DNA of 19,475 bases from an uncultured Bacilli bacterium. Lineage in GTDB: Bacteria > Bacillota_I > Bacilli_A > RF39 > UBA660. This document shows positions 555 through 19,475 of the stretch, piece by piece. The notes beneath the pieces are model-generated. The model was not told where the DNA came from. It worked only from the letters and a program-made list of their open reading frames with translations, and ran no database searches. The stretch spans positions 1-19,475 of the forward strand of contig CAKONK010000018.1 in the NCBI GenBank assembly GCA_934097085.1, read 5' to 3'. The translations under genes and the position numbers were made by a program. The stretch's first letter is position 1, and each line of letters opens with the position of its first letter.

Positions 555-564
555 AATTTACTCC

Positions 565-2960: not shown

Positions 2961-2982
2961 TTAACCCCCTCCATGGGACTAT

Positions 2983-3010
2983 ATTCTATCATAAAATAAT
3001 TAAAAGTCAA
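2983..3010 (-). promoter_or_regulatory. Sigma-70-type promoter for the ATPase operon
   Basis: Minus strand reads TTGACT (3005-3010), a 16-nt spacer, then TGa-TAGAAT (extended -10, 2983-2991). This lies about 20 nt upstream of the GGAGGGGG RBS. Confidence 0.5.
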
Positions 3011-3154
3011 GCTAAACTATCTTACGCATGAAATATAAAATTATATGGTTTTTCTAATACTATATCATCTGTATTTAAAAATTTAAATAATTTTCCAATT
3101 TTTTACATTTTTTAGCCATACTTCACCAACTTTATTCTTTACTTTATTATACAT

Positions 3155-3187
3155 AAAAAAACACGCGTTTCAAAATTTCATGTGTTT
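3155..3187 (-). terminator. Candidate rho-independent terminator (second of two downstream of the kinase-SIS gene)
   Basis: Minus-strand AAACAC ... GTGTTT stem (3182-3187 / 3159-3164) followed by UUUU. The loop is about 17 nt, so this is weak. Confidence 0.3.
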
Positions 3188-3205
3188 CTCCTATTCGTAA
3201 ATAAA

Positions 3206-3239
3206 TTATAAAAAGAAGTATGCTTTTGTTTACATACTT
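3206..3239 (-). terminator. Candidate rho-independent terminator of the kinase-SIS gene
   Basis: Minus-strand AAGTATG-taaacaaaag-CATACTT hairpin (3216-3239) followed by CTTTTTAT. It starts 16 nt after the TAA stop at 3255-3257. Confidence 0.45.
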
Positions 3240-3254
3240 TATCAGTCATATTAT

Positions 3255-5201: not shown

Positions 5202-5248
5202 ATGTACCTTTTTAATTTTTTTAAATAGACAATACCTTTCTTAAGTGT

Positions 5249-5277
5249 ATTATATCACGGATGATAAATATAGCAAA
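5249..5277 (-). promoter_or_regulatory. Candidate promoter of the kinase-SIS gene
   Basis: Minus strand reads TTTGCT (5272-5277), a 17-nt spacer, then TGa-TATAAT (extended -10, 5249-5257). Confidence 0.4.
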
Positions 5278-5330
5278 TTAAAATTTCTAAAAAATACTCT
5301 ACCCGTGTTATAATATTTATGAGGTGTTTT

Positions 5331-5759
5331 ATGAATGAATTAATGTTAATTTCAATTAAAACTAAATATGCAAATCAAATATTCGAAGGTACTAAAAAAT
5401 ATGAATACCGAAGAAAAAGTATTGGTGAAAAAAATTGTAATAAAAAAATATATGTTTACTCCTCTGAAAAAGATAAAGCAATTATAGGTTATATAATCGT
5501 AGATAAAATTATCGAAGGTAATGCTGACTATGTACTAAAAAATACGGATAATGAAAATAATAGTGATTTACTTGCGTATTTCGAAGGAAATGATAAATGT
5601 TATGCTCTTCAAATAAAAAGTGCTTGCAAATTTAAAACACCTATTTATTTAAATGAAATTAAAAGTGAAGATAAAAATTTTGTTGTTCCACAGTTTTATA
5701 GATACATTAAAGAAAATGAATATATTTATAAAAAACTTACTAAAAAGGAAATAATATGA
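5331..5759 (+). CDS. ASCH (PUA-like) domain protein
   Basis: I prefer the ATG at 5331 (MNELMLISIKTKYANQIFEGTKKYEYRRK...) because GAGGTG sits at 5321-5326. The track start at 5319 lies inside that RBS. The pattern hh-SIKp-yA--IF-G-KKyEyR+ ... IYVYSS ... IIGY ... VPQFYRYI matches the small prokaryotic ASCH family. The stop TGA (5757-5759) overlaps the next ATG. Confidence 0.7.
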   Translation: MNELMLISIKTKYANQIFEGTKKYEYRRKSIGEKNCNKKIYVYSSEKDKAIIGYIIVDKIIEGNADYVLKNTDNENNSDLLAYFEGNDKCYALQIKSACKFKTPIYLNEIKSEDKNFVVPQFYRYIKENEYIYKKLTKKEII

Positions 5760-6328
5760 AAATAGATAATATTAAAAATTACCTTTCATCACCTGATTTT
5801 ATGAACCTTGCTAATGAAATGTATGAATTAACAATTAATAATGAATACCCAGATTATAAAAATTGGTTTTATAATAAACAAATCAAAGGTTGTCTAACTC
5901 CTTACCGAAATATTCTTTTTATTAAAAATGAAAATGGAAATATTATTGCATTATGTTCCTTAAAAAAAGATGCAAATGAAAGGAAAATATGTACTTTATT
6001 TGTTGCAAAAGAATATAGAAATCAAGGACTTGGAAGTCTATTAATCGAAGAGGCAATGAAATATTTAGAGACTACTAAACCTTTAATAACTATTAATGAA
6101 GAGAAACTTGCAATGTTTAAAAATCTAATTACCAAATATAATTGGAATTTAACCGAGGTTGCTTTAGGAATATATAGTGAAAACGTAAAAGAATTTTGTT
6201 TTAATGGAAAATTAACTTCACTTAATTATAAGGAAGAACTTATTAAAGTATTGAATAAAATAAAAAGTAAAGCCGAAACAAGTTTACAAGATAATGATAG
6301 AATTACCGAAATATCAATTAGAAAATAA
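5756..6328 (+). CDS. GNAT-family N-acetyltransferase
   Basis: 190-aa ORF. The acetyl-CoA motif A is ICTLFVAKEYRNQGLGSLLIEEAMKYL (R/Q-x-x-G-x-G). ATGA start/stop overlap with the ASCH gene. Confidence 0.75.
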   Translation: MKIDNIKNYLSSPDFMNLANEMYELTINNEYPDYKNWFYNKQIKGCLTPYRNILFIKNENGNIIALCSLKKDANERKICTLFVAKEYRNQGLGSLLIEEAMKYLETTKPLITINEEKLAMFKNLITKYNWNLTEVALGIYSENVKEFCFNGKLTSLNYKEELIKVLNKIKSKAETSLQDNDRITEISIRK

Positions 6329-6358
6329 TTTCTTAAATGCAATGTAAACCAGATTTTG

Positions 6359-6387
6359 TTGACTTTTACCCATATTTATAGTAAAAT
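6359..6387 (+). promoter_or_regulatory. Promoter of rpmB
   Basis: TTGACT (6359-6364), a 17-nt spacer, then TAAAAT (6382-6387). It lies about 30 nt upstream of the GGAGG RBS at 6406-6410. Confidence 0.55.
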
Positions 6388-6419
6388 TTAAAAGTAATGA
6401 AAAAAGGAGGAAACTAATA

Positions 6420-6587
6420 ATGGCTACTAAAATAACTAATAAAAAACCTTTATCAGGAAATAATAGATCTCATGCAGAAAATGCTACAAAAAGAGTTCAA
6501 AAACCAAATCTTCAAAAAAAAGTTATTAATGGAGAAAAAGTTATTATTTCTGCAAGAGAAGCAAGAACAATTAATAAACAAAAATAA
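6420..6587 (+). CDS. rpmB: 50S ribosomal protein L28
   Basis: Below the ORF-track size cut-off. My translation: MATKITNKKPLSGNNRSHAENATKRVQKPNLQKKVINGEKVIISAREARTINKQK (55 aa). It has the L28 signature SGNN-x-SHA-x-N-x-TKR...PNLQ. GGAGG lies 9 nt upstream and the stop is TAA at 6585-6587. Confidence 0.9.
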   Translation: MATKITNKKPLSGNNRSHAENATKRVQKPNLQKKVINGEKVIISAREARTINKQK

Positions 6588-6620
6588 AAATACTGGTTAT
6601 AAAAATCAGTATTTTTTATT
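6587..6620. terminator. Bidirectional rho-independent terminator between convergent rpmB and the histidine kinase gene
   Basis: AAAATACTG (6587-6595) pairs with CAGTATTTT (6607-6615). T-runs follow the hairpin on both strands. It sits exactly between the two stop codons (6585-6587 and 6620-6622). Confidence 0.65.
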
Positions 6621-8476
6621 TATCTTTTACAAAATATATTATTTAAAAGCACTTGAAGTTCTTCTCTATTAATAGGTTTTGAAATATAGCCATCAAAGCC
6701 CTCTTTTAAATAAAACTCTTTCATACCTACCATTGCATTAGCAGTAAGAGCAATTACCGGAGGAATCTTAACACCCTCTAAATTTTTAAGCGTTTTTAAA
6801 GTTTGAATACCATCCATAAGAGGCATCATATGGTCTAAAAATATTAAATCGTATCTTGCTCCACCTTTAATTTTTTCAATAGCCTCTGCTCCACTTTGAA
6901 GGCAAGTAATATTAAATTTATAATCAGATAATATTCTTTGAGCAACTTTTAAATTTAAAATATTATCATCAACAATTAATATATCATATAGTGAACCATC
7001 AAAATGTACATTTGTGGTACTTACTTTAGTTTGCGTATTAACTTCTTCTTTTTCAATAGCATTAAAATCTATTTTCTGTGGAAGTACTACTGTAAATGTT
7101 GTTCCAACCTTATATTTTGAGGTAAATGATATTGTTCCTCCTAAAAGTTCTACTAACTTCTTTGTTATAACAAGACCAAGTCCAGTACCCTCAACTTCGT
7201 TATAATTTTCTTGATTATGAATTCTTGAAAATTTAACAAATAATTTATCATAATCACTTTCTTTAATACCAATTCCTGTATCTGCTACAGAAAATTTAAC
7301 TGTAGCCATATCGCCAACATTTTCACTAGTGATATTAAAATCTATATGGCCCTCATCTGTATACTTTGCAGCATTTGATAATATATTCATAAGTATTTGA
7401 TATATTTTAAGTTCATCACCTATCATAAATTTAGGTACATCCGAAGATATATTTATATTAAGTTTTACTTTATTTTGATCTAGTTTAGCGGTTATTACCG
7501 ATGAAAGCTGCATAATAATCTTACGCATTTCATAAGTAGTTTCTTTCTTTTCCTCTTTACCACTTTCAATTCTTGAAACATCCAAAATATTATTAATAAT
7601 TCCTAAAAGTGTTGAGGCTGCATCATAAATACTTTGAACTTCATTTTTTTGATTTATTGGCATATTCTCTGTAAGAAGACTTTCAGAAAAACCTATTATA
7701 GCATTCATTGGTGTTCTAATATCATGACTCATATTTGATAAAAAGTCTGTTTTTGCTTTTGAGGCTTCATTAGCCTCTTCTTTATCTTTTTCAAGTTCAT
7801 TTATTATCTTTAAATCTGGATTTTCCATTGTAAAGTAAATAAGTGCTATTACAAGTCCCATTATCGAGCTATTAATTGAAACACTTGGATTTACCCAACT
7901 AATAATTATACCTATAAGGCCCAAAAAAGCAAATAAGAAAACTATTATTTTTTTACTGAAATCAAGTTTTTCTTTTTTATAAATCATATATATTACCAAA
8001 AGTCCACTGTAAACGATATTAACTATATATGTAAAATATAAATCTCTACCATTTTGATAAGCAATTAATTTATCGCTATCAACAAAATAATTTGGTTTTA
8101 AATAAATACTTACTGCACATAATATTAAACTTATTATCATTAAAATTATATAAAAAGGATTACTTTTAAATAATTCTTTTAAAGTTTTAAATTCTTTTTT
8201 TAGGGAACTAATATAAATGATTAGCCAAGTGCTCCATATAATAGTGCTTACTAAAAATCCTTTACAAATAATCATATTTAATAGTTCATATTTATCTTGA
8301 AAAAATAATAAATAGTTTTTAACGCCATCAAATAAAATTACAATAAATGTTAAAATTGAAAATACCTCAAAGTTTTTATTTTCTAAACTTTTTTCTTTTC
8401 TTTTTTTAGTAAATACACTAAGTAGTAATAATAAATAACATATTGATAATATCTGAAGTAAACAAGATCTTATCAT
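6620..8476 (-). CDS. Membrane-bound hybrid sensor histidine kinase (multi-TM sensor + HisKA + HATPase_c + receiver)
   Basis: 618-aa ORF with about 6-7 hydrophobic segments in the first ~215 aa. H-box SHDIRTPMNAI, N-box NILSNAAKYT, G1 DTGIGI and G2 GTGLGL. The C-terminal REC domain has ILIVDDN ... DLIFLDHMMPLMDG ... ALTANA ... YISKP. The ATG overlaps the upstream TGA (ATGA). Confidence 0.9.
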   Translation of the reverse strand: MIRSCLLQILSICYLLLLLSVFTKKRKEKSLENKNFEVFSILTFIVILFDGVKNYLLFFQDKYELLNMIICKGFLVSTIIWSTWLIIYISSLKKEFKTLKELFKSNPFYIILMIISLILCAVSIYLKPNYFVDSDKLIAYQNGRDLYFTYIVNIVYSGLLVIYMIYKKEKLDFSKKIIVFLFAFLGLIGIIISWVNPSVSINSSIMGLVIALIYFTMENPDLKIINELEKDKEEANEASKAKTDFLSNMSHDIRTPMNAIIGFSESLLTENMPINQKNEVQSIYDAASTLLGIINNILDVSRIESGKEEKKETTYEMRKIIMQLSSVITAKLDQNKVKLNINISSDVPKFMIGDELKIYQILMNILSNAAKYTDEGHIDFNITSENVGDMATVKFSVADTGIGIKESDYDKLFVKFSRIHNQENYNEVEGTGLGLVITKKLVELLGGTISFTSKYKVGTTFTVVLPQKIDFNAIEKEEVNTQTKVSTTNVHFDGSLYDILIVDDNILNLKVAQRILSDYKFNITCLQSGAEAIEKIKGGARYDLIFLDHMMPLMDGIQTLKTLKNLEGVKIPPVIALTANAMVGMKEFYLKEGFDGYISKPINREELQVLLNNIFCKR

Positions 8477-9969
8477 TTAATATCACCAATTATTTTATTA
8501 AATATTTCAATACTTTCAGGACTATATTTAGTGCCATTTTTACTTACAATTAATTTAATCATATCTTCTTTAGAAACTTTTTTAATAATGCCTCTTGCAT
8601 ATTCATAAGCAATATTTACAAGATATACATATAAAGGTACTTCACCCTCTTTTAAAGATTTAGGAAATCCTTTACCATCATATCTTTCATTATGCATTAA
8701 ACAAATATTTCTAGCATATTCTTTAGTTTTTTCATCCAAGAAATTCATATTATTTAATACCATAACTGATTTATATGGATAAGAATATATTACCTTTTTT
8801 TCATCGTCATTTAAATTACTGAAACTATTAAAATATGATACTGGTGCAAGTTTTAAACCTACATCATAATACTTTGCAGCATTAATAATTATATCTTTGT
8901 TATCTGTAAGCATTAGGAAAAGCACTTCTGATACTTTTTGATATACACCGTTATTATCTATTAAGTAAGATTCTACATAATCATCTAAAATACTACTTAA
9001 ATCTTTATTTTGAGATTTAATAATTTCTGATAAATAATTATTTTTTGAATACATTCTTACCATATTATTTAATCTTTTATTAATAATTTCAAAGTTAAAT
9101 GGTTTTTCTATCATATCGGCTATTTCATAAGCATAGACCTTTTCTTTAGTATCTTTACTATCATCAGCAGAAACTATAACAACAGGCATTTTATTAAGTA
9201 GTCTTTTTTCATTTAGAAAGTCTAGTACGCCAAAGCCATCCATAACTGGCATTTTTAAATCTAAGAACATACCAACAATATTTTTTTCATTTGTTTTTAA
9301 ATTATTATTAATTATTTCTACAGCTTCTTCACCATTTTTCGCTTCGATTATGTTATACGAAGAAAATGCTTTTTTAAAAATACTTCTTGTTAAATCATCA
9401 TCATCAATTATCAAAAGGTATTCTGTAAAATTATTCATTTTACTTATAAGTTTTCCTTCATAATATTTATTAATCTCTGGATTTTTCTTAACTACATCAT
9501 ATAAAAGTGATGAAAAATAGTTATATAGATTATTAATTTCATTATTATCTCTTGAGATACTTTCTAAAGTATTTTCAATATTTAAAATTAAATCTGTTAT
9601 ATCACTACTTATATCATTTTTTTCTTCTTTTTTAGGTTTTTCCTCAGACTTAAAGGAAACAATAAATACTTTATTTCCCGGAAGTAATTTAACAAGAGCA
9701 GTATAATTATCATATATAAGTAAATTAGATAATTTTAGAAAGTTAATAGTTTTATAACCATCAAGTGGTAAATTATTAGCGCTTATTTCATTAAAATAAG
9801 TATTTGCATAATCGGGATGAAGACTTTTTTTACATCTTTCAAAGTAATCTTCATAACTAATACTTGATGGATTTTCTGTATATTTATCATATAAATAAAC
9901 TTTATCTTCGTTTAAATCTATTAAAGTTATATCAATGATATTAAATAAATCATTTATTAAATTATTCAT
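8473..9969 (-). CDS. Response regulator: unknown N-terminal domain (~180 aa) + receiver + degenerate HD-GYP-like domain
   Basis: 498-aa ORF. REC: LLIIDDDD ... MFLD237LKMPVMDG ... VIVSADD ... IEKP. C-terminus: AAKYYDVG in place of HDxGK, and MHNERYDGKGFP in place of HHExxDGxGYP. Confidence 0.8.
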   Translation of the reverse strand: MNNLINDLFNIIDITLIDLNEDKVYLYDKYTENPSSISYEDYFERCKKSLHPDYANTYFNEISANNLPLDGYKTINFLKLSNLLIYDNYTALVKLLPGNKVFIVSFKSEEKPKKEEKNDISSDITDLILNIENTLESISRDNNEINNLYNYFSSLLYDVVKKNPEINKYYEGKLISKMNNFTEYLLIIDDDDLTRSIFKKAFSSYNIIEAKNGEEAVEIINNNLKTNEKNIVGMFLDLKMPVMDGFGVLDFLNEKRLLNKMPVVIVSADDSKDTKEKVYAYEIADMIEKPFNFEIINKRLNNMVRMYSKNNYLSEIIKSQNKDLSSILDDYVESYLIDNNGVYQKVSEVLFLMLTDNKDIIINAAKYYDVGLKLAPVSYFNSFSNLNDDEKKVIYSYPYKSVMVLNNMNFLDEKTKEYARNICLMHNERYDGKGFPKSLKEGEVPLYVYLVNIAYEYARGIIKKVSKEDMIKLIVSKNGTKYSPESIEIFNKIIGDIK

Positions 9970-10333
9970 TGTTACCTCCGAAGAATGTATCTAATACTTT
10001 ATATAGTTCATTGGCCTTTACAAAAAGATTAGTAATATTTTGATTTATAAAATTAATATCACCATTTTTCGCAGCCATTTCGTGTTCATACGCCATATTA
10101 GCAAAATTCATTATTCCAAAAGTTTTACAATTACTTTTTAGAGCGTGAACTTTTACTCCATAGTTTTCAATATCTTTATTTTCATATAAAGTTCTTATCT
10201 CATTCATTTGATTAATAAAACCATTTTTAAACTCTAATAAAAGTTCTTTGTAAGATGTTTCATCGCCAATAAAAGATAATCCTAAATCTACATCAATTCC
10301 ATTATTTTTTAAATATTCTAAAGTATTATTCAT
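9962..10333 (-). CDS. Hpt (histidine phosphotransfer) domain protein
   Basis: Hpt motif VHALKSNCKTFG (H-x-x-K-[GS]). I prefer the ATG at 10331-10333 (MNNTLEYL...). The track start at 10375 has no RBS and lies in the A-run of the upstream hairpin. The stop overlaps the RR start (ATGAATAA). Confidence 0.7.
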   Translation of the reverse strand: MNNTLEYLKNNGIDVDLGLSFIGDETSYKELLLEFKNGFINQMNEIRTLYENKDIENYGVKVHALKSNCKTFGIMNFANMAYEHEMAAKNGDINFINQNITNLFVKANELYKVLDTFFGGNNE

Positions 10334-10402
10334 AAGTCCACTACCCTTTCCTAGTATACAATAATATTTTAGCATAAAAAAACACTATTTAAAATAGCAT
10401 TT

Positions 10403-10942
10403 TTATAAATTTACTTTAATATTTTCTCTTTTTTCACTTTCAATTTTAAATAAGTCTTTTTTCTCAAAGTTAAATATTTTAGCAATTATGTTTGATGGTA
10501 CACTTTCTACTGCATTATTGTATGATGTAACTGCATTATTATAACTTGTTCTTGCATAACTTAATTTATTTTCGATTTCATTTAAATTTCTTTGTAAACT
10601 TAAAAAGTCTGCATTTGCTTTTAAATCTGGGTAACTTTCTGCGATTGCCATAAGATTATTAATTTGTTTATCAATCTTCTCGGTTTCCTGTGTACTAAAG
10701 CCATTATTTTGATACTCACTTCTTAATTTAGTAACATTTTCTAAAGTTGATTTTTCGTGTTTAGCATAGCCTTTAACACAATTAACTATATTTGGTATTA
10801 AATCAAATCTTTGATTTAAAAGAACATCTATTTGAGACTCTCTTTCTTTAACTCTATTACCTTTCTTAACAAAACCATTATAGTATGATAGAATCATTCC
10901 TGATATAATTACAATAATTAATAAAATAATATTTAATAACAT
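10403..10942 (-). CDS. lemA: LemA family membrane protein
   Basis: 179 aa with an N-terminal TM segment. NQRFDLIPNIVNCVKGYAKHE and YNNAV repeats match the LemA family. GGAGG lies 7 nt upstream of the ATG. Confidence 0.8.
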   Translation of the reverse strand: MLLNIILLIIVIISGMILSYYNGFVKKGNRVKERESQIDVLLNQRFDLIPNIVNCVKGYAKHEKSTLENVTKLRSEYQNNGFSTQETEKIDKQINNLMAIAESYPDLKANADFLSLQRNLNEIENKLSYARTSYNNAVTSYNNAVESVPSNIIAKIFNFEKKDLFKIESEKRENIKVNL

Positions 10943-10954
10943 CTTACTTCCTCC

Positions 10955-11479
10955 TTACTTTGTCTCAATAGTTACTTTATTTACATAACCATTTTCATCA
11001 TAATCTACAGATATTTCATAATCTTGTAACTTGTAACCATTAAAACTTTTAAGCATACTTTTAATTTCTTTGATTTTATCTGGATCAGTTCCATAAGAAG
11101 TACCATCAAATATTACCTCGATTAAATGATCACTTGATTTTTTATTACTTTTGATTATTTCATCAACCTCAAGGCCAGTAGCAGTTCCACCTTTAGTTCC
11201 AGCATAAAATTCATGCATATTATTAAAGCTATCTTTTTCTCTTTCAAGTTCTTCTTCTTTCATTTTTTGTTCAATTTCCTCTTGTCTTTTTTTAGCTTCT
11301 TCCTCAGCCTGTTTTTGCTTATCTTTAATTTCTTGCTTTTCTTTATTAAATTCCTCTTTTATAGCATCTTTCTTAGCTTTAATCGATAAACCAACTCTAT
11401 AAGTAAGGGTTCCAAGTGATGCAATAAAAATTATAATTACAATATATAATATAAACTTTCTATCTTTTTTCTTTTCCAT
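10955..11479 (-). CDS. Membrane-anchored protein with a K/E-rich coiled coil and a small C-terminal domain (unknown function)
   Basis: 174-aa ORF with GGAGA RBS. TM segment FILYIVIIIFIASLGTL, then KEEFNKEKQEIKDKQKQAEEEAKKRQEEIEQKMKEEELEREK, then a ~85-aa C-terminal domain. It ends 12 nt before lemA. Confidence 0.6.
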   Translation of the reverse strand: MEKKKDRKFILYIVIIIFIASLGTLTYRVGLSIKAKKDAIKEEFNKEKQEIKDKQKQAEEEAKKRQEEIEQKMKEEELEREKDSFNNMHEFYAGTKGGTATGLEVDEIIKSNKKSSDHLIEVIFDGTSYGTDPDKIKEIKSMLKSFNGYKLQDYEISVDYDENGYVNKVTIETK

Positions 11480-11530
11480 TTTAATACTTCTCCTTTTTAA
11501 TTATATTTATAGTATATCAATTTTATTAAT

Positions 11531-11560
11531 AAAAAACTAGGTTTAAATTTCAAGCCTAGT
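11531..11560 (-). terminator. Rho-independent terminator of the 315-aa secreted-protein gene
   Basis: Minus-strand ACTAGG-13 nt-CCTAGT hairpin (11536-11560) followed by TTTTT (plus-strand A-run at 11531-11535). It starts 18 nt after the stop. Confidence 0.55.
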
Positions 11561-11578
11561 ATTTATTTAAATGATTTA

Positions 11579-12526
11579 TTAAGGTTCAGAAATAATTTGT
11601 GAATATTCTATGTTTGCCATAAATCTTTTAGAACCATTTTGAATTTGATTATGCATGTAATTTATTAAAGTAACTCTAGCCATATAATAATCATTAATTT
11701 TGCCAATAGCTTTGCTTGTAGTCATTTCTACATTATCCGCTAAATTAATTGTTCCTTGAGTATTTGTAATATCATATGTATTTTGAAGAACATAACACTT
11801 GTTATTTGATGCATTATAGTAATCAGCAACCCATCTATTTAAGCCATCACAATCTGCTTCAGAAGTTATACCATCAACAACTTGTCTATTAGGATCATAA
11901 CATTTACCAGTATTACAATTTTCTTGTGTTCTAGAATTATCAACTTTATAAAAATCTAATACTAATTCTGCATCTTTTCTAGTTTCCCAAATATATGTGT
12001 CACTAGCGGTACATGAGAACATATTATCTAAATAGCCATCACTTGATAATGTATTACCTTTGGCATAGCATTTTTCCTCTTTACCATCCGTCGCCCAAAT
12101 ATTTGCACCAGTACATTCTTCCTTAGAAACATCTACAGTCTCTCTTTTTTCATAACAAGTACCTGAGGTATATTCCATATCATTTTGTGTAATATTTAAA
12201 TCAATTTTATACTTTCTTGTTGATTCAGCTTCATTTCCAGTTGTAAAAGTAATACTTCCAAATGAATTATCACTTAAATCCTCCCCAGCAACAGCTTGAT
12301 CTTTACCAAAATTTTCAGTATTTGCTACTAACTCGATTGGCGTACCAGCATCAATTAAAAATAAATCGCTTGATACATTAGTCGTAACATTAATATTAGA
12401 ATTACCCTTTCCATCAACTTGACTTGCTAAGTAGGCAAATGTTGCTCCGATTACAACAACTAACATAGTTACTATTGCTATTACTGTAAGAAGAACTACA
12501 TTGCTTTTTTTTGAACTTTCATCCAT
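11579..12526 (-). CDS. Secreted/cell-surface protein with a SipW(TasA)-type signal peptide and a duplicated Cys-rich insert
   Basis: 315-aa ORF with GGGAG 9 nt upstream. N-terminus: KKSNVVLLTVIAIVTMLVVVIGATFAYLAS (G-x-TFAY[FL] motif). Eight Cys residues fall in two similar units. Confidence 0.75.
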   Translation of the reverse strand: MDESSKKSNVVLLTVIAIVTMLVVVIGATFAYLASQVDGKGNSNINVTTNVSSDLFLIDAGTPIELVANTENFGKDQAVAGEDLSDNSFGSITFTTGNEAESTRKYKIDLNITQNDMEYTSGTCYEKRETVDVSKEECTGANIWATDGKEEKCYAKGNTLSSDGYLDNMFSCTASDTYIWETRKDAELVLDFYKVDNSRTQENCNTGKCYDPNRQVVDGITSEADCDGLNRWVADYYNASNNKCYVLQNTYDITNTQGTINLADNVEMTTSKAIGKINDYYMARVTLINYMHNQIQNGSKRFMANIEYSQIISEP

Positions 12527-12556
12527 TTTTAAAATCTCCCTTCTATTATCAAAATA

Positions 12557-12585
12557 ATCATATAATATTTTTTTACTTTAGTCAA
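12557..12585 (-). promoter_or_regulatory. Promoter of the 315-aa secreted-protein gene
   Basis: Minus strand reads TTGACT (12580-12585), a 17-nt spacer, then TATGAT (12557-12562). Confidence 0.5.
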
Positions 12586-12660
12586 TAAATTAAAAATTAT
12601 TTTTTAAAAATTATACATTTTTTTTACTTTTTTTGATATGATTATAATGGAGATAAAAAT

Positions 12661-12993
12661 ATGATATTACAAATAAGTGATGATGAAAATATAAAAGTAA
12701 AAATAGCAAATAATTTTTTAAAGAAACTAATTGGTTTTATGGGTAAAAAAGATTTTGATTATGGAATAATATTTCCTAAAACAAATTCAATTCACACTTT
12801 TTTTATGAAAGAAAACATTGATGTAATTGGTTTTGATAATCATGGAATAATTATTTTTAAAGCAGTTAATGTAGAAAAGAATAAAGTTATAGTAATAAAA
12901 CAGCAATTAAAAAATACAAACATTTTAGAAATGCCTGCATTTAAATCAAAAAAATTAAAAATGTATGATAAATTAACCTTTATACGTAAATAA
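12661..12993 (+). CDS. DUF192 (COG1430) family protein
   Basis: 110 aa with GGAG 8 nt upstream. KIANNFLKKLIGFMGKKDF-YGIIFPKTNSIHTFFMKENIDVIGFD matches the DUF192 pattern (A--...-GLMgR ... G-lF ... IHTfgM-f-IDvvflD). Its 3' end overlaps the obg 3' end by 21 nt (convergent). Confidence 0.65.
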   Translation: MILQISDDENIKVKIANNFLKKLIGFMGKKDFDYGIIFPKTNSIHTFFMKENIDVIGFDNHGIIIFKAVNVEKNKVIVIKQQLKNTNILEMPAFKSKKLKMYDKLTFIRK

Positions 12994-14241
12994 ATAATCA
13001 TTTATTGCTACATCATCACCAGGTTTAGCACCCATTTTTTCTAAGGTTTCTTCAACTCCCATAGCACGAAGTATTCTACCAAAACGAAGAACTCCCTCTT
13101 CTTCAGTAAATTTAGTCATGTTAAATAACCTTTCAATTTCTTTACCTGTAACAACCCAAGTATCACCATCTTTAGTTATTTCATAAGGTTTATCTTTTTT
13201 AAATTTAATATAAACTTCATCCTCAAACTCATCTTTATCATAAGAAAATTCTTCTTCAGTTTTTAAAGTTTCATTTATCTTATTTAATAAATCATCAATA
13301 CCTTGATGCGTTATAGAGCTTATTTCAAATATATCTTTATCTGGATAAGCTTTTTTAAATTCTATTAAATTATCTTTACTATCAGGCATATCCATTTTTG
13401 AGGCAACAATTATTTCTTTTTTATTTGCAAGTTTTTTAGAGTATTTAGAAAGTTCTTCCCTAATTACTTTATAATCATTAATAGGATCATTACCCTCCAT
13501 TTTAGACATATTTACCATATGTACTAACACTTTACATCTATCAGCGTGACGAAGAAATCTGTCTCCTAAACCTACTCCTTCACTTGCTCCCTCGATTAAA
13601 CCTGGAAGGTCTGCTACTACAAAAGAATCACTACCTAATTTAACTACTCCTAAATTAGGTGATAAAGTAGTAAAATGATAACTTGCTATTTTAGGTTTAG
13701 CCGAAGATATTACACTTAAAAATGTTGATTTACCAACACTTGGCATACCTATAAGTCCTACATCCGCTAAAACTTTAAGTTCGCATCTTAAATATTTTAT
13801 TTCTCCTTGTTCACCATTTTCTGAAAACTTTGGAGCGGGATTTTCATGAGTAGCAAAGGCTTTATTACCTCTTCCACCTCTTCCACCGTGTGCTACTATA
13901 ACTGATTGATTGTCCTCAACTATATCACTAACAATAAGACCTGTATCATCATCATAAACTGTTGTTCCAAGAGGTACTTTAATAATGATATCTTCACTAT
14001 TTTTACCAAATTTATTGGAACCCATACCATTTTCGCCTTTTTTACCTTTAATAATTTTTTGAAATCTTAAATCTACTAAAGTTTTTAAAGATTTATCTCC
14101 AACAAAAACAATATTACTTCCTCTTCCACCATTTCCACCATCTGGTCCACCCATAGGTACAAATTTTTCTCTACGAAAGGAAGTACATCCCATACCTCCA
14201 TCACCAGCAATTAACTTAACTTTAACTTCATCAACAAACAT
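12973..14241 (-). CDS. obg: GTPase Obg/CgtA
   Basis: 422 aa. MFVDEVKVKLIAGDGGMGCTSFRREKFVPMGGPDGGNGGRGSNIVF is the Obg fold. G1 GMPSVGKST, G3 DLPGLIEGA, and a C-terminal OCT/TGS-like domain. Confidence 0.95.
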   Translation of the reverse strand: MFVDEVKVKLIAGDGGMGCTSFRREKFVPMGGPDGGNGGRGSNIVFVGDKSLKTLVDLRFQKIIKGKKGENGMGSNKFGKNSEDIIIKVPLGTTVYDDDTGLIVSDIVEDNQSVIVAHGGRGGRGNKAFATHENPAPKFSENGEQGEIKYLRCELKVLADVGLIGMPSVGKSTFLSVISSAKPKIASYHFTTLSPNLGVVKLGSDSFVVADLPGLIEGASEGVGLGDRFLRHADRCKVLVHMVNMSKMEGNDPINDYKVIREELSKYSKKLANKKEIIVASKMDMPDSKDNLIEFKKAYPDKDIFEISSITHQGIDDLLNKINETLKTEEEFSYDKDEFEDEVYIKFKKDKPYEITKDGDTWVVTGKEIERLFNMTKFTEEEGVLRFGRILRAMGVEETLEKMGAKPGDDVAINDYLFTYKG

Positions 14242-14242
14242 A

Positions 14243-14623
14243 TTATCTTCCCCTTAAACTTATATCTATTGTATCAAATTCCTTATAATTTGCATAGTAA
14301 GAAATCATTTCTACAATAATTTCTTTTAAAATACTATTACTTTCACTATACATATTATTTTCATTAAAGTACTTTTCCATACATCTTGCATAATTAATAT
14401 TATTTCTAATAGTCTTTTTCTTTTCAAAATCATATTTACTTAAATCATAAGAACAAAATAAAATACTTATATTATCAAATAAATCACTTAATACTTTATT
14501 TTTTTCTTCTTCATCAAGGTAATCAATAAATAATATTCCATCTGAAAAGTAATCACTAAAACTATTTATATTAATTCCCATTGGAAGTGGTAATACTTTT
14601 TCATCAATACTAATTAAATACAT
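14243..14623 (-). CDS. Hypothetical protein (126 aa) translationally coupled to obg
   Basis: Strong AAGGGAGG RBS 6 nt upstream of the ATG. The stop TAA lies 1 nt before the obg ATG. Acidic, with no His residues and no motif I recognise. Confidence 0.6.
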   Translation of the reverse strand: MYLISIDEKVLPLPMGININSFSDYFSDGILFIDYLDEEEKNKVLSDLFDNISILFCSYDLSKYDFEKKKTIRNNINYARCMEKYFNENNMYSESNSILKEIIVEMISYYANYKEFDTIDISLRGR

Positions 14624-14637
14624 AATAAACCTCCCTT

Positions 14638-14660
14638 AAAAAAAATGCCATTAAGGCATT
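14638..14660 (-). terminator. Rho-independent terminator/attenuator after rpmA
   Basis: Minus-strand AAUGCC-UUAAU-GGCAUU hairpin (14644-14660, overlapping the rpmA TAA) followed by U6. The RBS of the next gene starts directly after it. Confidence 0.6.
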
Positions 14661-14943
14661 ATTTTTCATAAACAGATACTTTTTTCTTATCTTTACCCAT
14701 TCTTTCATACTTAACAGTTCCACTAACTTTAGCAAATAAAGTATGATCTTTTCCCATTCCTACATTAGTTCCTGGATAAATTCTAGTTCCTCTTTGACGG
14801 TAAATAATACTTCCAGCATTACAAGTTTGTCCATCAGAAAGTTTAGCACCTAATCTACGACCTGCTGAATCACGATTGTTCTTAGTAGAACCTTGAGCCT
14901 TAACGTGAGCAAATCTTTGAATATTTAAACTTATATATAACAT
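14659..14943 (-). CDS. rpmA: 50S ribosomal protein L27 with a cleavable N-terminal extension
   Basis: 94 aa. [34 protein letters not shown]... The Firmicute-type propeptide ends in F, as in B. subtilis MLRLDLQFF/ASKKG. Confidence 0.95.
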
Positions 14944-14961
14944 TTCTATTCTCCTTTACTA

Positions 14962-15255
14962 TTATTCTTCATTAACTTTAATATTTTTAGGATAACTTTT
15001 TTCTAACTCTTTAAGCATAGTCATCATATTTAAAATTAATGAGTTTGTAATATCATCAGATAAAAGAACTTTTATTTCCATATATTCATCATTATCTAGA
15101 AATTCAATACTTTTTTCATTGATATTTAATAGACCATTTACAGTAGTATAAATTATACTTGATACGCTAGCACATACAATATCTTTACCAGCATTATCAT
15201 AACCTGAATGACCTGTTATTTTAATAACATTTCCATTTTTATTAACTTTAATCAT
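14962..15255 (-). CDS. prp: Ribosomal-processing cysteine protease Prp (YsxB family)
   Basis: 97 aa. ITGHSGYDNAGKDIVCASVS carries the conserved His/Cys dyad. It sits in the canonical position between rplU and rpmA. Confidence 0.9.
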   Translation of the reverse strand: MIKVNKNGNVIKITGHSGYDNAGKDIVCASVSSIIYTTVNGLLNINEKSIEFLDNDEYMEIKVLLSDDITNSLILNMMTMLKELEKSYPKNIKVNEE

Positions 15256-15257
15256 TA

Positions 15258-15557
15258 TTAACCATTAATTTTTTTAACTTCAACTAAAGTATATGCTTGT
15301 CTATGTCCTTGAGTTTTTCTAGATTTTTTCTTAGGACGATAATGGAATACTTTTATTTTTTTACCTCTACCATTTTTAATAACTTCAGCTTCAACTGATG
15401 CTCCTTTTACAAATGGTTTTCCAGCTTTTCCATCAACAAATAATACTTCATCGAAAACAACTTTTTGTCCAGCTTCAACATCTAATTTTTCAACATAGAT
15501 ACGGCTATTTTCTTCAACATAATATTGTTTTCCACCTGTTTTAATTATAGCTTTCAT
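15258..15557 (-). CDS. rplU: 50S ribosomal protein L21
   Basis: 99 aa. [16 protein letters not shown] ... [19 protein letters not shown]. Confidence 0.95.
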
Positions 15558-15575
15558 TTCTTTTCCTCCTTTTCA

Positions 15576-15639
15576 TAAGTCACACCTTTAAGGTAAGATA
15601 ATCTTTTAAAAACCTTTTTAGAGTGGATGAAATGACTTA
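15576..15639 (-). promoter_or_regulatory. Structured 5' leader of rplU (candidate L21 ribosomal-protein leader)
   Basis: The minus-strand RNA can form a stacked hairpin: UAAGUCA (15633-15639) with UGACUUA (15576-15582), CAC with GUG, AAGGU with ACCUU, and an apical AAGA/UCUU. It ends 5 nt before the AAGGAGG SD. Position and context match the Firmicute L21 leader, but I cannot run a covariance model. Confidence 0.3.
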
Positions 15640-15649
15640 AAACAATAAG

Positions 15650-15679
15650 ATTATACCAAAAAATCCCTGATATAGTCAA
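15650..15679 (-). promoter_or_regulatory. Promoter of the rplU-prp-rpmA operon
   Basis: Minus strand reads TTGACT (15674-15679), an 18-nt spacer, then TGg-TATAAT (extended -10, 15650-15658). Confidence 0.6.
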
Positions 15680-15684
15680 GGATT
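15657..15684 (-). terminator. Rho-independent terminator of the upstream 189-aa gene, overlapping the rplU promoter
   Basis: Minus-strand AAUCCUUGA-cuaua-UCAGGGAUU (9 bp including one G-U, 15662-15684) followed by UUUUU. It starts 22 nt after the stop at 15707-15709. Confidence 0.65.
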
Positions 15685-15706
15685 TTCACTAACTTTTTTC
15701 ATACAT

Positions 15707-16276
15707 TTATTTTATAGTTCCATATTGGCTCTTTAATCGTTCAATTGATCTTTTTTTTATTTTTTGCATTGTTTCTGGATTTTTTTCTTTACCTATAAAT
15801 TCGCCGGTGACTATACTTGGATACTTTGGATATTGAAGTACTTCATCCTCAAATAAAAATTCCCAATTTCCAATACCATATTTCAGATCATTATTAACAA
15901 AAAACATTAAGTCTCCAAAACTTTGTAACACATCTTGACAATATTTTTCTTTTAATTCATTTATTTTTTCAAAACTTGCTACAATCATAAATTCATTTTC
16001 ATGGCTTTCTATTATTAGTCGCTCTTCTAACATCTTTTCATAAATATCAGTTAGATCAACAATAGGAAAATTATTTAGGTTTGTTATAACATTTAAATTT
16101 TCATATATATTCTTAAACCTTTCCATTCTAGCATAACAGCCTAATGATTCCATAATATTATTTATATTAAAAAAATCAATTTCTCCATATTTAAAAATTA
16201 AAATTAAATTAAAAATATCTTCCTCAGTTATTTTTTCAGTTTTTTTATTTCTATAACTATTAAAGTCTATTATCAT
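15707..16276 (-). CDS. Hypothetical protein (189 aa)
   Basis: I prefer the ATG at 16274-16276 (MIIDFNSYRNKK...), which has AAGGAGG 10 nt upstream. The track start (16321) falls inside the predicted promoter spacer. No motifs recognised. Confidence 0.6.
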   Translation of the reverse strand: MIIDFNSYRNKKTEKITEEDIFNLILIFKYGEIDFFNINNIMESLGCYARMERFKNIYENLNVITNLNNFPIVDLTDIYEKMLEERLIIESHENEFMIVASFEKINELKEKYCQDVLQSFGDLMFFVNNDLKYGIGNWEFLFEDEVLQYPKYPSIVTGEFIGKEKNPETMQKIKKRSIERLKSQYGTIK

Positions 16277-16304
16277 ACTACTGAATCCTCCTTGATGTGT
16301 TAAT

Positions 16305-16333
16305 ATTCTAGCATATAACATAGTTTAATTCAA
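16305..16333 (-). promoter_or_regulatory. Promoter of the 189-aa gene
   Basis: Minus strand reads TTGAAT (16328-16333), a 17-nt spacer, then TAGAAT (16305-16310). Confidence 0.5.
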
Positions 16334-16348
16334 CTTTTATTATTATCT

Positions 16349-17089
16349 TTATATTTCAAAATCAAGCATATCATTAACTGCTATTTCATATAAATCTTGT
16401 TCATGTTTCACTGTATCAATTAAAAACATTTTATCACTTTCATAATTTTTAAGACCTCTTAAATAAAAATGTTTATCATTATCTGATACTATGAATGGCA
16501 TTATATCATTTTTTAAGCATTCTTTAAACATTATCATTCTTCCCACTCTACCATTGCCAGAACCAAAAGGATGTATTTTTTCAAATCAATAATGAAATTC
16601 AATAATATCCTCAAGAGTAACATTTTCAATTGAATTATACCAAGAAAGTAAATTATCAATATCTTTTGGAGTATTCTTAGGGGAAGATGTATTTATAACA
16701 TTAATTAAGCCTATTTTATTAGGAACTATCTTAAATCCTCCGACATTATATCTTGGATTATCTTCATCAGTCGTTCCTCTTTTAAGAATTTTATTCATTT
16801 CAATAATCATGGATTTATCAAGTCTTTTTTCATAAGTATCTAACATATAATCAAATAATCTAAAATGATTTTTCATTTCAATTAAATCATCTAATTTTAC
16901 TACATCATCTGCCTTAGGTATATAAGAGTTTGTTACAAATATTTCTTCAGTTTCATCCTCACTTAAATGTGTACCCTCAATTTTATTAGAATTATATGCA
17001 AAATTAACCTGTGAATAATGATAAATATTTCCCTTAAATTTTGAATATTTTTGACTAATTAATTCACTTTTTAACTTTTCTATATTCAT
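16349..17089 (-). pseudogene. Fic/DOC family protein interrupted by a single in-frame TGA
   Basis: Track ORFs 16586-17089 and 16349-16546 are in the same frame. Reading through gives ...LEDIIEFHY-TGA-FEKIHPFGSGNGRVGRMIMFKECLKNDIMPFIV... The TGA is at 16586-16588 and the Fic motif HPFxxGNGRxxR at 16538-16573. Confidence 0.75.
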
Positions 17090-17264
17090 AATTATTCCCT
17101 TTCTTTCACTTCGTGGAAACTTTACGCCCCATAAAGGGGTGTATTACTTTAGTATGATTTACTGCTTTAATATTTCAGTCACATTTAGTTTTATTTTTTT
17201 ACCGACGCACAATCGAGGATTGTACTATATTTTTTTCTCAGAAAAGTTGCCCTTCTCTTCGGCT

Positions 17265-19028
17265 CTAATTTACTGTGTAAACATCATTATATTTTCCACT
17301 TCCTAGTAACTTACTTTCAGAGGATAGAGAAACTACACCACGGACCGCAACATTGCGAGAATCAACAAGGCCATCAAGAAAACTACCAAACGGATCAAGA
17401 CCAAACACATGCGAACCACTATCAATGAACACAAGAGGGGAGCCCGCCCAATATGCCATATTATTATTTAAATAGAAAGCACTGTTGTCCGTGCCAATTT
17501 TTCCTCCAGCTAGCACTATTTCATCCTCTGTTATTAGTCCTAAATTATTTGTTACCACATCTGCATTATTACATTCAAATGTAGGTGTTGGAGGACTTGA
17601 ACTTAATCTAGTATATGGAGCATATTCAAAATCTCTGCCATTCGATGCCCATGTTCTAGATGTATTTCTATCATTGCAAAATGTTGTTTTAACAAATCTT
17701 GATGTTCCTATATTTTCATTAAAATATTTTGTATACCAATTATCTAAATATGTTTTTATTGTACTATTTGTGTTTGTTCCTCTTTGAGAACCAGTTGTAT
17801 ATTGAAATCCTACATATTCTGCTTTATCATATTTATTATTATAAGCTGTAAAGCCCATATTTGTATCTGCCCCAGTAATTGCAACTTTTGCATTTTCACT
17901 CGGTGCTTTACTTCCTGCATATATCATTTTTATTTTATTATTTTTATCTACTCTTATTATTCTCCAGTACATATCATCACCTTTATTGGCATATACTACT
18001 TCTTTACATTTATAGTTATATGTTGAATCATAATCCACACCAGTTTGACATTCTGCTAATGTTGGGTAATCTATGTAGTTAGCCTGATTATTTACACTAT
18101 CAAACCATACATCAGTGTTTGTTGTATCGTCTCTAAAACCTCTATAAACAATTTGGTCTGCTTTAAACTTACCATATTTTACCCAGTTGTTATCTACTGC
18201 ACCTCTATAATAATATGTTTTACCTGTTCCTTCTGTATATGAAAACATTCCTGCATTACTAGTTTCTACTGTTGTAAAATCTGCTGTTTTTGCCTCAATT
18301 GCAGTTTTACCACCATTATTAGCAAGTATTGTTTCATAACCTTTTTTAACTGTTGTACCATCTTTTGTAGAACAATTTACATTTTCTACATATATTTTAC
18401 CAGTAAAAGATTTACCACTTAAAGCATATTGATTTAAATCTAAATTATAATATCTACCAGTAACTTTCCATCTTACTGATTGCTCCGTACCCAAACTTTT
18501 TAATGTAGCTCCAGTTACTAATGTAACTTTTGCTCCTGTTGAGGAAGTAGCATTACTCCATCCTTTACTTGTATCAAAATTAAAATTAGTTTCTGTAGCA
18601 AAATGATTATTTCCATTCATACCATTTACTTCAATAGTTATTTCTTTAGTAGCATCAGTAGTAACTGGTACAGTTTTACCATATATATCACTATTTGTAT
18701 TATATTCATAAACTAAATCATAAGAACATGTTGTTAAAAAACCTTCTGCTCCTGTTAAAGTTATATCTACAAAACCAGTATCTTCTTTCGCAGCAACTGT
18801 ATTATTTGTATTATACTGAGCCATTGAGGTATCAGGTACTTGTATATTTAACTGAGTAGAATTTGCAATAAAAGATAAATTACCAGGACTTGTAGAATTA
18901 ATGTTAACTGCTACATTATTATTTAAATTTATATTAAATGTTCCTAAATATGCATAAGCTGCACCAATAACTAAAATAAGAAAGAATACACTTGATAAAA
19001 TAACTTTTAATTTATTTTTGCTTTTCAT
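17265..19028 (-). CDS. Large secreted/cell-surface protein: SipW-type signal peptide, beta-rich N-terminal module, C-terminal lectin-like module
   Basis: 587-aa ORF with GAGGA 5 nt upstream and a TAG stop. N-terminus: KLKVILSSVFFLILVIGAAYAYLGT. Later motifs in order: MYWRIIRVDKNNKIKMIYAG, STIKTYLDNWYTKYF, LGLITEDEIVLAGG, AYWAGSP, VAVRGVVSL. Confidence 0.8.
   Translation of the reverse strand: MKSKNKLKVILSSVFFLILVIGAAYAYLGTFNINLNNNVAVNINSTSPGNLSFIANSTQLNIQVPDTSMAQYNTNNTVAAKEDTGFVDITLTGAEGFLTTCSYDLVYEYNTNSDIYGKTVPVTTDATKEITIEVNGMNGNNHFATETNFNFDTSKGWSNATSSTGAKVTLVTGATLKSLGTEQSVRWKVTGRYYNLDLNQYALSGKSFTGKIYVENVNCSTKDGTTVKKGYETILANNGGKTAIEAKTADFTTVETSNAGMFSYTEGTGKTYYYRGAVDNNWVKYGKFKADQIVYRGFRDDTTNTDVWFDSVNNQANYIDYPTLAECQTGVDYDSTYNYKCKEVVYANKGDDMYWRIIRVDKNNKIKMIYAGSKAPSENAKVAITGADTNMGFTAYNNKYDKAEYVGFQYTTGSQRGTNTNSTIKTYLDNWYTKYFNENIGTSRFVKTTFCNDRNTSRTWASNGRDFEYAPYTRLSSSPPTPTFECNNADVVTNNLGLITEDEIVLAGGKIGTDNSAFYLNNNMAYWAGSPLVFIDSGSHVFGLDPFGSFLDGLVDSRNVAVRGVVSLSSESKLLGSGKYNDVYTVN
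17331..17450 (-). other. Adenine-depleted 3' patch; candidate DGR variable region (VR)
   Basis: Hand count: 11 A in 120 coding-strand nt, versus 51 in the adjacent 120 nt (17451-17570). About 48% GC. Synonymous codons are A-free. See findings. Confidence 0.4.
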
Positions 19029-19067
19029 TATAATCCTCTTTTCTATTTATCTTTACTTTTTAATAAT

Positions 19068-19096
19068 ACTATATTTTTTTAAAAAATTCTACACAA
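19068..19096 (-). promoter_or_regulatory. Candidate promoter of the 587-aa surface-protein gene
   Basis: Minus strand reads TTGTGT (19091-19096), a 17-nt spacer, then TATAGT (19068-19073). Confidence 0.4.
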
Positions 19097-19133
19097 TTTT
19101 ATGTATTTTATTTTAAAAAAATAAAACTAGAGA

Positions 19134-19475
19134 TTATTCCTTAGTTTTATTAACTTCTTTAAGAAGAGTATTAAATTCTTCTTCAGTCACATTAGTGGCC
19201 TCAATAACAATATTTTTTTCAAATCCCATTTCAATAAGTTTTTTTGCATTAGCAAGTTTAGTTTGTTCAACGCCATACTCAAAAGATAATTCTTTCATTT
19301 CTGCTTCATGAAATTTCTTTGGATCATAATATATTAACTCATCTAAATTTTTTTGCATTTCTTTTAACTCCTTTACAATTCTTAGCATCATTTTATCACC
19401 AATAAATGCTTTCTTTTTATTTGTTATGCATATTAGTGATAAATATTCTAAGCCATCCCTATCTAACTTTCTAAT
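19134..19475 (-). CDS. C-terminal part of an Rpn/YhgA-like PD-(D/E)XK nuclease ('putative transposase') family protein. The gene runs off the right edge.
   Basis: The reading frame stays open from 19475 (IRKLDRDGLEYLSLICITNKKKAFIGDKMMLRIVKEL...), so the track's ATG at 19391 is probably internal. The tail EYGVEQTKLANAKKLIEMGFEKNIVIEATNVTEEEFNTLLKE resembles the helical C-terminal repeats of Rpn-family proteins. This is recognised from memory only. Confidence 0.4.
   Translation of the reverse strand: MRKLDRDGLEYLSLICITNKKKAFIGDKMMLRIVKELKEMQKNLDELIYYDPKKFHEAEMKELSFEYGVEQTKLANAKKLIEMGFEKNIVIEATNVTEEEFNTLLKEVNKTKE

Follow-up and report, generated by a model that had tools for sequence, protein, structure and literature searches.

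Why does the 3' end of a surface-protein gene in a very AT-rich gut bacterium avoid adenine almost entirely, how was this patch written, and is it still being rewritten? The gene lies on contig CAKONK010000018.1 (assembly GCA_934097085.1, positions 1 to 19,475) of an uncultured Bacilli bacterium; this whole 19,475-nt stretch is referred to here as the window, coordinates are positions within it, and base counts are those of the minus (coding) strand. The gene (17265..19028, minus strand) is an open reading frame (ORF) for a secreted or surface protein of 587 aa with an N-terminal hydrophobic helix. Working from the letters alone, an initial annotation had proposed that the adenine-poor patch near its C-terminus is the variable region (VR) of a diversity-generating retroelement (DGR) without a local template. 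This proposal is upheld by a template repeat (TR) found in relatives, by adenine-specific mismatches between TR and VR, by variability confined to the patch and by the predicted fold of the domain that carries it, and a DGR origin of the patch is virtually certain. The VR in the window is probably a DGR-written remote variable region that has become a fossil, or has at least long been quiescent.

The depletion of adenine is sharp and strand-specific. Positions 17331-17450 hold 11 A, 22 C, 37 G and 50 T (120 nt, GC 0.49), which is the lowest adenine count among all 120-nt windows on the minus strand (mean 48.5, standard deviation 7.3), and a count of at most 11 over this length has a binomial probability of 2e-14. 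Both the 11 A and the raised GC agree with the initial count, and the adjoining 120 nt (17451-17570) contain 49 A rather than the 51 first reported, a minor miscount. The target ORF overall is 39% A and 30% GC. The depleted block extends over 132 nt (17319-17450), from TGG (W527) to TCT (S570), with abrupt edges on both sides, and third-position A is found in 2 of its 44 codons vs 232 of 544 codons outside (Fisher p = 6e-8). Codon-by-codon reading reproduced the list of A-avoiding choices given earlier (CTT x4, CGC/CGT, GGT/GGC, CCT/CCG, GCG), and on recount ten of the 11 A's in the patch again occupy positions 1-2 of NNT codons, the remaining one being in GTA. T makes up 42% of the patch, indicating adenine avoidance rather than a general GC shift or a GC island. 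A sharp, strand-specific A gap of this kind, 132 nt long, can reveal an orphan or remote DGR VR in a very AT-rich genome, and the signature offers a simple route to orphan or remote DGR targets that homology-based DGR finders miss.

As the initial annotation stated, the window itself contains no second copy of the patch, no reverse transcriptase (RT) and no Avd. The contig of the window (L001) runs 9 kb past the window end, giving 28 kb of contiguous sequence for the strain, and a repeat search detected no second copy in the window or in these 9 kb. A TR scan in which every position could match either the VR base or A reached at best 105/132 in the window and L001, which equals background, and Pfam scans of the window ORFs, together with precomputed Pfam annotation of L001, returned no RT or Avd. 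Weak inverted repeats (124-162 / 17344-17403) were considered as a TR and were ruled out as T-rich chance matches.

The TR was found in related genomes. A predicted TR, with AAY at hypervariable codons and N at synonymous sites (pattern AAYTCNAAYGTNTTYGANCTNAAYCCNATHAAY), had exactly one match in 185,579 species-representative genomes, on CAKOIF010000003.1, which belongs to an uncultured gut Bacilli metagenome-assembled genome (CAKOIF01) from a Hadza sample. On this contig, a 588-aa homologue of the target is followed by a 112-aa Avd, a 104-aa ORF and the TR, which reads TGGGCGGGCTCTCCT AAT AGA TTC AAT GAT AGT AAT TCG AAT GTA TTT GAA CTT AAT CCG ATT AAT GGT CTG AAT AAT GAC AAT GTT AAT AAT CGT AAT AAT GCG GCT CGT GGC GTA. 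The Avd that follows the target (112-113 aa) matches NF033474 (DivGenRetAVD) over its full length with E = 5e-9, below the curated cut-off, and also matches PF22296 (bAvd) with E = 1.5e-7. By way of Avd relatives, full cassettes in the order target, Avd, 99-aa ORF, TR and 446-aa RT were recovered on about 30 gut-metagenome contigs, with the RT directly 3' of the TR in L022, L025, L029-L038 and others. The RT passes Pfam RVT_1 with 59.5 bits, and in the PDB it is matched best by chain 8ub7_A, of 328 aa (E = 2.8e-16), in an alignment that pairs IGNVCSQ with IGSLTSQ and continues to YMDD. IGxxxSQ is a motif typical of DGR RTs. Judging by its sequence, 8ub7_A is probably the Bordetella phage RT (bRT). 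A general VR/TR pattern yielded 60 further loci on metagenome contigs, and 14 distinct TRs of 119, 122 or 125 nt were obtained in all. The Avd protein P0164 is listed, as an exact match, in 183 blocks of the collection, and cassettes are common in the species group. The proposed search for a TR beside RT and Avd thus succeeded in related loci, first with the TR next to Avd in CAKOIF01 and then with the full cassettes, and all three elements are present there and absent from the window.

The cassettes differ among themselves in their TRs. L022 (2273 and 2707) and L050 (1424 and 1858) each have, ahead of a single RT, a tandem pair of different TRs spaced about 434 nt from each other; the VR beside the L022 cassette matches the first TR, and a VR on another contig, L023, is better matched by the second. 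In L029-L038 (TR at 4756), the Avd is the identical P0164 and the SDF gene is 96-100% identical, yet TRs of 119 nt (NEFNDDNSNEFNVNDDGNL...) and of 122 nt (NEFNDSNSNVFELNPINGL...) occur. Such differing TR types in otherwise near-identical cassettes suggest that TRs appear to have been exchanged between cassettes.

The VR of the window spans 117 nt (17334..17450, minus strand), with homology to the TR from TGGGCGGGCTCCCCT to CGTGGTGTA in an alignment to the 14 distinct TRs. Relative to the closest of these (the L036/L038 type), it is changed at 26 of 35 A sites and at 6 of 73 non-A sites (Fisher p = 4.6e-12), and the proportion of A sites changed (74%) is close to the 75% expected from random replacement. 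The non-A differences are GGT->AGT at codon 549, CTG->TTT at codon 550, CGT->CGC at codon 558 and GCT->GTC at codon 562. In cognate cassette VR/TR pairs, 12-28 mismatches lie at TR adenines and 0-1 elsewhere, the non-A mismatches being confined to the GC-rich 3' end of the VR, which resembles an initiation of mutagenic homing (IMH) site. The cassette targets of seven samples (L029, L030, L032-L035 and L037) are only 0-2 nt apart in the 1500 nt upstream and 17-29 nt apart within the 113-nt VR, and between each VR and its own TR there are 15-28 mismatches, every one at a TR adenine save for one in L033. The DGR is active in the species group, and mismatches fall at TR adenines in the way that the initial annotation had proposed to check.

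These results bear directly on whether the patch might have arisen without a DGR, either as a GC-richer foreign segment brought in by recombination or because amino-acid composition or an element (RNA or DNA) that overlaps it had shaped it. Such an origin would be in keeping with the GC of the patch (49% vs roughly 30%), with the mosaic structure of a family whose paralogues recombine, and with the occurrence of the same VR alleles on different backbones. However, the TR predicted from the patch exists beside Avd and RT, the mismatches are A-specific (p = 5e-12), the depletion concerns A while T remains at 42%, and there is neither an Rfam match nor a significant fold in 17215-17350, making a non-DGR origin extremely improbable.

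Variability between strains is restricted to the same segment. In an alignment of the query and its 120 best homologues (121 sequences), 19 codons are hypervariable (532, 533, 535-538, 540, 543, 545, 547, 548, 551-554, 556, 557, 559 and 560), with a column entropy of 2-3.5 bits and 8-16 residue types vs about 0.2-0.5 bits over most of the protein. They define an adenine-mutagenised span of codons 532-560 (17349..17435, minus strand), in which the near-invariant residues F534, S539, V541, F542, L544, P546, V555 and R558 are interleaved. The TR codons that template the hypervariable sites are AAT, GAA, GAT, AGT, ATT, GAC and GTA. The substitution spectra at codon 547 (I/V/F/L, expected from ATT), codon 553 (G/D/A/V, from GAC) and codon 537 (S/G/R, from AGT) are consistent with changes at single adenines. 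Between-strain variability limited to the patch, another of the proposed checks, is therefore seen both in the family entropy and in the cassette VRs, which differ downstream of nearly identical sequence.

Two further observations concern variability in or near the VR. Codons 511-512 (17493-17498, minus strand), about 20 codons upstream of the VR, show 11-12 residue types among invariant A-rich codons (N515, N522); cassette strains whose only differences are in the VR do not vary here, indicating that these codons are not written by the DGR, and it is possible that they lie along the binding site and evolve together with the VR. In L068, the VR (minus-strand offset 1217) is 121 nt long vs 119 or 122 nt in others, which destroys the frame and results in a stop; this locus is probably a pseudogenised target or an assembly error.

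At its 3' end, the VR has the boundary expected of a DGR target. VR/TR homology stops at CGYGGYGTA, with the last mutagenised codon just upstream, and the IMH-like end of the VR (17317..17348, minus strand; alignment A2) consists of the GC-rich GCGGTCCGTGGTGTA followed by GTTTCTCTATCCTCTGA. Past the end of homology, the VR reads GTTTCTCTATCCTCTGA, which is invariant in all targets including the window, and the TR reads TTTTCCTTACAAAGTGAG / GTATTTTCCTTACAAAGTGAG. The 3' end in the window, CGTGGTGTA then GTTTCTCTATCCTCTGA, is the same as in actively diversified targets and the TR is divergent, which corresponds to the IMH/IMH* pattern. The GC-rich, IMH-like end noticed at the outset is thus confirmed by the divergence of VR and TR at this boundary and by the invariance of the downstream segment.

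Judging by sequence and genomic context, the window gene is a remote paralogous target outside the cassette. The species group has at least four such paralogous DGR target loci, in distinct genomic contexts, and that of the window gene lies between EF-P and rplU. Targeting over tens of kilobases is evident on single contigs: on OLQV01000004.1 (L064, L078), a VR at about 12-15 kb has 1 non-A mismatch to the TR of a cassette at 57-70 kb (~45 kb apart), and on ERZ827512 NODE-426 (L053, L075), a VR about 42 kb from the TR has 0 non-A mismatches. Orthologues of the window locus with rplU 99.7-100% identical carry other VR alleles, and these alleles (L016, L062, L073, L089 and L044/L080) derive from three TR types with 0-3 non-A mismatches. 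Scans of IMG/VR with the TR-specific pattern and with the general VR/TR pattern gave 0 matches, so there is no evidence of a phage-borne element. This absence is in line with a rule from Wu et al. 2018 (PMC5758913): where a target is remote, its DGR is a non-phage one.

By analogy with the DGR of Bordetella phage BPP-1, the patch would have been written by retrohoming. A chromosomal cassette (target, Avd, 99-aa ORF, TR and 446-aa RT) would transcribe its TR of ~120 nt, the RT would copy the TR into cDNA with misincorporation opposite adenines, and the cDNA would replace the homologous 3' segment of target genes up to the IMH-like boundary. The TR encodes scaffold residues in A-free codons and reserves adenines for the codons that are to be diversified (AAT and the like). 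This codon design leaves every VR copy A-poor and GC-richer than the host (27-30% GC), which accounts for the compositional anomaly of the patch. The window VR was written from a TR of type A, and substitutions have reached 26 of its 35 template adenines. In the lineage of the window, rewriting has probably stopped; the allele is fixed, is inherited as ordinary sequence and has gathered non-A point changes. Loss of TR and RT in the lineage, as in L045, or selection on the allele could have caused this freeze.

The fixation of the allele is evident from its distribution. The exact 587-aa protein is present on 17 contigs from independent samples, and P0002, 95% identical overall, is present on 37 contigs with the same VR DNA. 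The allele is unchanged in 9 of the 14 listed members of the 90% cluster, with 3 more one residue off, and summed over listed members the exact allele occurs on at least 91 contigs. It is also carried by backbones that are 74-86% identical overall, with a mosaic N-terminal half and a C-terminal half 88-100% identical. In L099, where rplU is 97.7% identical and the gene flanks have 90-94% nucleotide identity, the allele is kept with 4 point changes, including changes at non-A sites, and in L100 it is likewise conserved with 4-5 point changes. The shared allele and its co-divergence in L099 and L100 indicate that the VR evolves like ordinary sequence under purifying selection in the lineage of the window. 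In the consensus assemblies, this copy is fixed and bears 6 non-A differences, the opposite of what a currently diversified copy would display, and it is likely no longer rewritten. The initial annotation had left open a remote target or the relic of one; the remote target stands, and relic describes this copy better in view of its fixed allele and non-A substitutions. It had also held that the same A-free patch in orthologues from DGR-free genomes would point away from a DGR. This condition applies in part, as orthologues do carry the same patch, which we read as a fossilised DGR-written segment rather than as a sign of non-DGR origin.

A natural control is provided by L045 (2095-3363), a decayed cassette that keeps avd and the 99-aa ORF and has lost the TR and most of the RT, with about 630 nt left vs about 2.4 kb before the Bro-N gene in intact cassettes. 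Its VR allele is found in 5 samples and has 3 non-A mismatches.

Should an intact cassette exist elsewhere in the genome, the VR could still be rewritten, with one allele dominating through selection or rare retrohoming. The IMH-like end and the 3' spacer are intact, as in active targets; strains with 99.7-100% rplU identity do rewrite the orthologous locus; the remote VRs 42-45 kb from a cassette are A-only copies of its TR (0-1 non-A mismatches); and cassettes are common in the species group, as the 183 blocks with P0164 attest. However, any new retrohoming event would restore the TR bases at non-A positions and randomise some 35 positions afresh. What is seen instead is one allele that bears the 6 non-A differences, occurs without change on at least 90 contigs and persists in the lineage with 97.7% rplU identity (L099), where it diverges no faster than its flanks. 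An active remote target is therefore unlikely.

Several points weigh against a fossil or long-quiescent VR, or against its link to a DGR. The 6 non-A differences could derive in part from an unsampled variant of the cognate TR rather than from drift. The copy looks, from its sequence, competent for retrohoming, since its IMH-like end is intact and does not differ from the one in actively diversified targets. The assemblies are consensus sequences only, in which low-level diversification within a sample would be invisible. The 28 kb of the strain contain no TR, Avd or RT, and the link to the cassette rests on related genomes. Moreover, there is no significant hairpin directly 3' of the IMH, where 136 nt (17215-17350) fold as DNA no better than shuffles (z +0.1 to -1.3) and no cruciform was detected, unlike in BPP-1, where a hairpin or cruciform comes immediately after the IMH (Guo et al. 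2011, PMC3240598).

The allele may also have spread mainly by recombination or gene conversion of a favoured VR between strains and paralogues, that is, by a sweep, and not by long vertical inheritance. The window and L010 are identical over 17350-17949 and different on both sides, the allele is found on two N-terminal types about 54% identical, and another recurrent allele is carried by two paralogue backbones (L051, L072). Against this, the VR of L099 has its own point substitutions and flanks of 90-94% identity, which looks like co-divergence rather than recent transfer. We consider a predominant sweep rather unlikely; it complements the fossil reading more than it excludes it, since a sweep still needs a VR that is not rewritten.

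Returning to the fossil VR, a more specific version of it is possible, although we put it forward only tentatively. The VR may be a "locked-in" DGR product, in which the sequence of a predicted binding site has been fixed and is held by purifying selection across strain-level and near-species-level lineages, while sister strains rewrite the orthologous locus from interchangeable TR types. If so, RT-deleted cassettes such as L045 would mark the transition, and the species group would form a natural series from active diversification to the domestication of a DGR-evolved ligand-binding site.

The protein segment that ends in the VR is predicted to be a ligand-binding domain with a DUF6273-like fold (aa 340-587; 17268..18011, minus strand; AlphaFold2 and Foldseek). 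Full-length AlphaFold2 prediction on a shallow multiple sequence alignment had a predicted local distance difference test score (pLDDT) of 41 and was unusable, and structural statements rest on a domain model built from diverse sequences. With a diverse alignment, the C-terminal 248 aa gave a pLDDT of 87.1 and a predicted template-modelling score of 0.87, and the VR forms the last strands and loops of the modelled domain. In Foldseek searches, the model matches DUF6273 proteins of gut phages with E = 8e-7 to 1e-3; its sole significant PDB match is 9qa6 (E = 3.6e-5), the N-terminal domain of which is a DUF6273 (PMC12402451), and canonical C-type lectins are matched at E of about 1-2 only. At the sequence level, the 587-aa protein has no Pfam or NCBIfam match. 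PF19789 (DUF6273) is matched weakly by 7 of 30 diverse homologues (best E = 4.8e-4), and the domain in the window has no Pfam match at E <= 0.01. Searches of the PDB with a family profile (A1) and a diverse domain profile (A3) returned nothing. In gut phages, DUF6273 is described as a DGR target domain that resembles C-type lectins and carries the VR C-terminally (PMC10743442, PMC11792537). The modelled domain thus appears to be similar in fold to DUF6273 and to C-type lectin domains and likewise has the VR at its C-terminus, and the C-type-lectin-like C-terminus suggested by the initial annotation agrees with this confident prediction (pLDDT 87).

The best structural matches of the domain model are gut-phage DUF6273 proteins, and DGR targets with this domain are known in human-gut phages as tentaclins (PMC10743442) and as Faecalibacterium prophage targets (PMC11792537). 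Unlike these, the protein described here is bacterial, chromosomally encoded and located at the surface or secreted, and its similarity to PF19789 is below threshold. In tentaclins the domain is at the N-terminus, whereas in the window protein it is C-terminal.

Among non-phage DGRs, the closest parallels are that of Treponema denticola (TvpA and up to seven non-adjacent targets) and those described by Wu et al. 2018 (PMC5758913). They are likewise chromosomal, and in both cases one cassette serves several paralogous targets, some of them tens of kb or more distant. The VR likewise lies C-terminally in a ligand-binding domain, and substitution is A-to-N only. However, the target domain here is DUF6273-like and without a Pfam match, vs FGE-sulfatase or TvpA-type; the host lineage belongs to uncultured gut Bacilli and is very AT-rich; avd is followed by a second ORF, of 99 aa, that is weakly Avd-like; TR types of 119, 122 and 125 nt and two-TR cassettes occur within one species group; and the window copy is fixed and not variable. 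The mechanistic prototype BPP-1 (mtd-avd-TR-brt) has in common with the gut Bacilli element the gene order target-avd-TR-RT, the RT motif IGxxxSQ, and homology that closes with GC-rich sequence, after which comes an IMH-like segment unlike the TR. In contrast to BPP-1, the element is cellular and not phage-borne, its RT has 446 aa vs 328 aa, and its target fold matches DUF6273 and not Mtd, which is not among the Foldseek top 50. The literature searches run returned no match to this multi-target DGR family.

The DGR mechanism is already well known, and the advance is incremental, consisting of the detection principle and of a comparison in which a single species has both active and frozen copies. 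A multi-target DGR nonetheless acts in a prevalent uncultured human-gut Bacilli lineage on surface proteins without Pfam annotation, and it provides a natural contrast, in which cassette-adjacent VRs differ in every person sampled, remote alleles are common to people and lineages, and some strains are without TR and RT. This contrast bears on the real activity rate of DGR targets and on their fate after a useful variant has arisen.

Downstream of the stop codon lies a conserved spacer of about 175 nt (17090..17264, minus strand), which is homologous to the spacer between target and avd in cassettes (alignments A2 and A4, and the L036 sequence). It is kept between cassettes and remote loci, including lineages in which avd is only about 86% identical. 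Conserved hairpins across loci (AGAGAAG/CTTCTCT, GCACAAT/ATTGTGC and ACGCCCC/GGGGCGT) lie about 95 nt downstream of the VR, and the window has AGAGAAG..CTTTTCT and ACACCCC-TTTAT-GGGGCGT. One hairpin has a seemingly compensatory change (GCACAAT to GCGCAA), and RNAalifold finds 1 covarying pair only, so a structural role of the hairpins is no more than putative. The spacer might act in cis in targeting or serve as the leader of avd-TR-RT. Rfam has no match in the window or in a cassette locus. As local causes of the freeze, three candidates were ruled out: a G.T mismatch in a hairpin (L010 has the same allele without the mismatch), the substitution A562V (L099 and L100 carry the allele without it) and a spacer deletion (L016 is without hairpin 2 and its VR is nevertheless A-only).

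The target protein has more than 2100 homologues in gut metagenomes, and AlphaFold2 predicts a helix at its residues 4-27. The N-terminal ~250 aa of the family (window 18280-19028, minus strand) are of at least two types, about 54% identical, which are shuffled against the conserved C-terminal half, indicating that the gene is a mosaic produced by recombination. A second secreted protein is encoded at 11579-12526 (minus strand); it is Cys-rich, 315 aa long and without a Pfam match, and its N-terminus, VVIGATFAYLAS, resembles LVIGAAYAYLG of the target. Such an N-terminus resembles SipW/TasA-type signal peptides, but no NCBIfam model matched.

The neighbours of the target are chromosomal housekeeping genes (rplU, prp, rpmA, obg and lemA) together with a two-component system. 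Directly downstream, a Fic-domain gene (16349-17089, minus strand; motif HPFGSGNGRVGR) holds the place that avd occupies in cassettes. It is broken by an in-frame TGA at 16586-16588, where the orthologues in L044 and L080 have Arg and the HPFGDGNGR motif. Genetic code 4 was ruled out as an explanation for this codon, given the Arg of the orthologues and the termination of 4 other window ORFs by TGA, and the Arg codons of the orthologues indicate that the Fic gene is a pseudogene in the lineage of the window.

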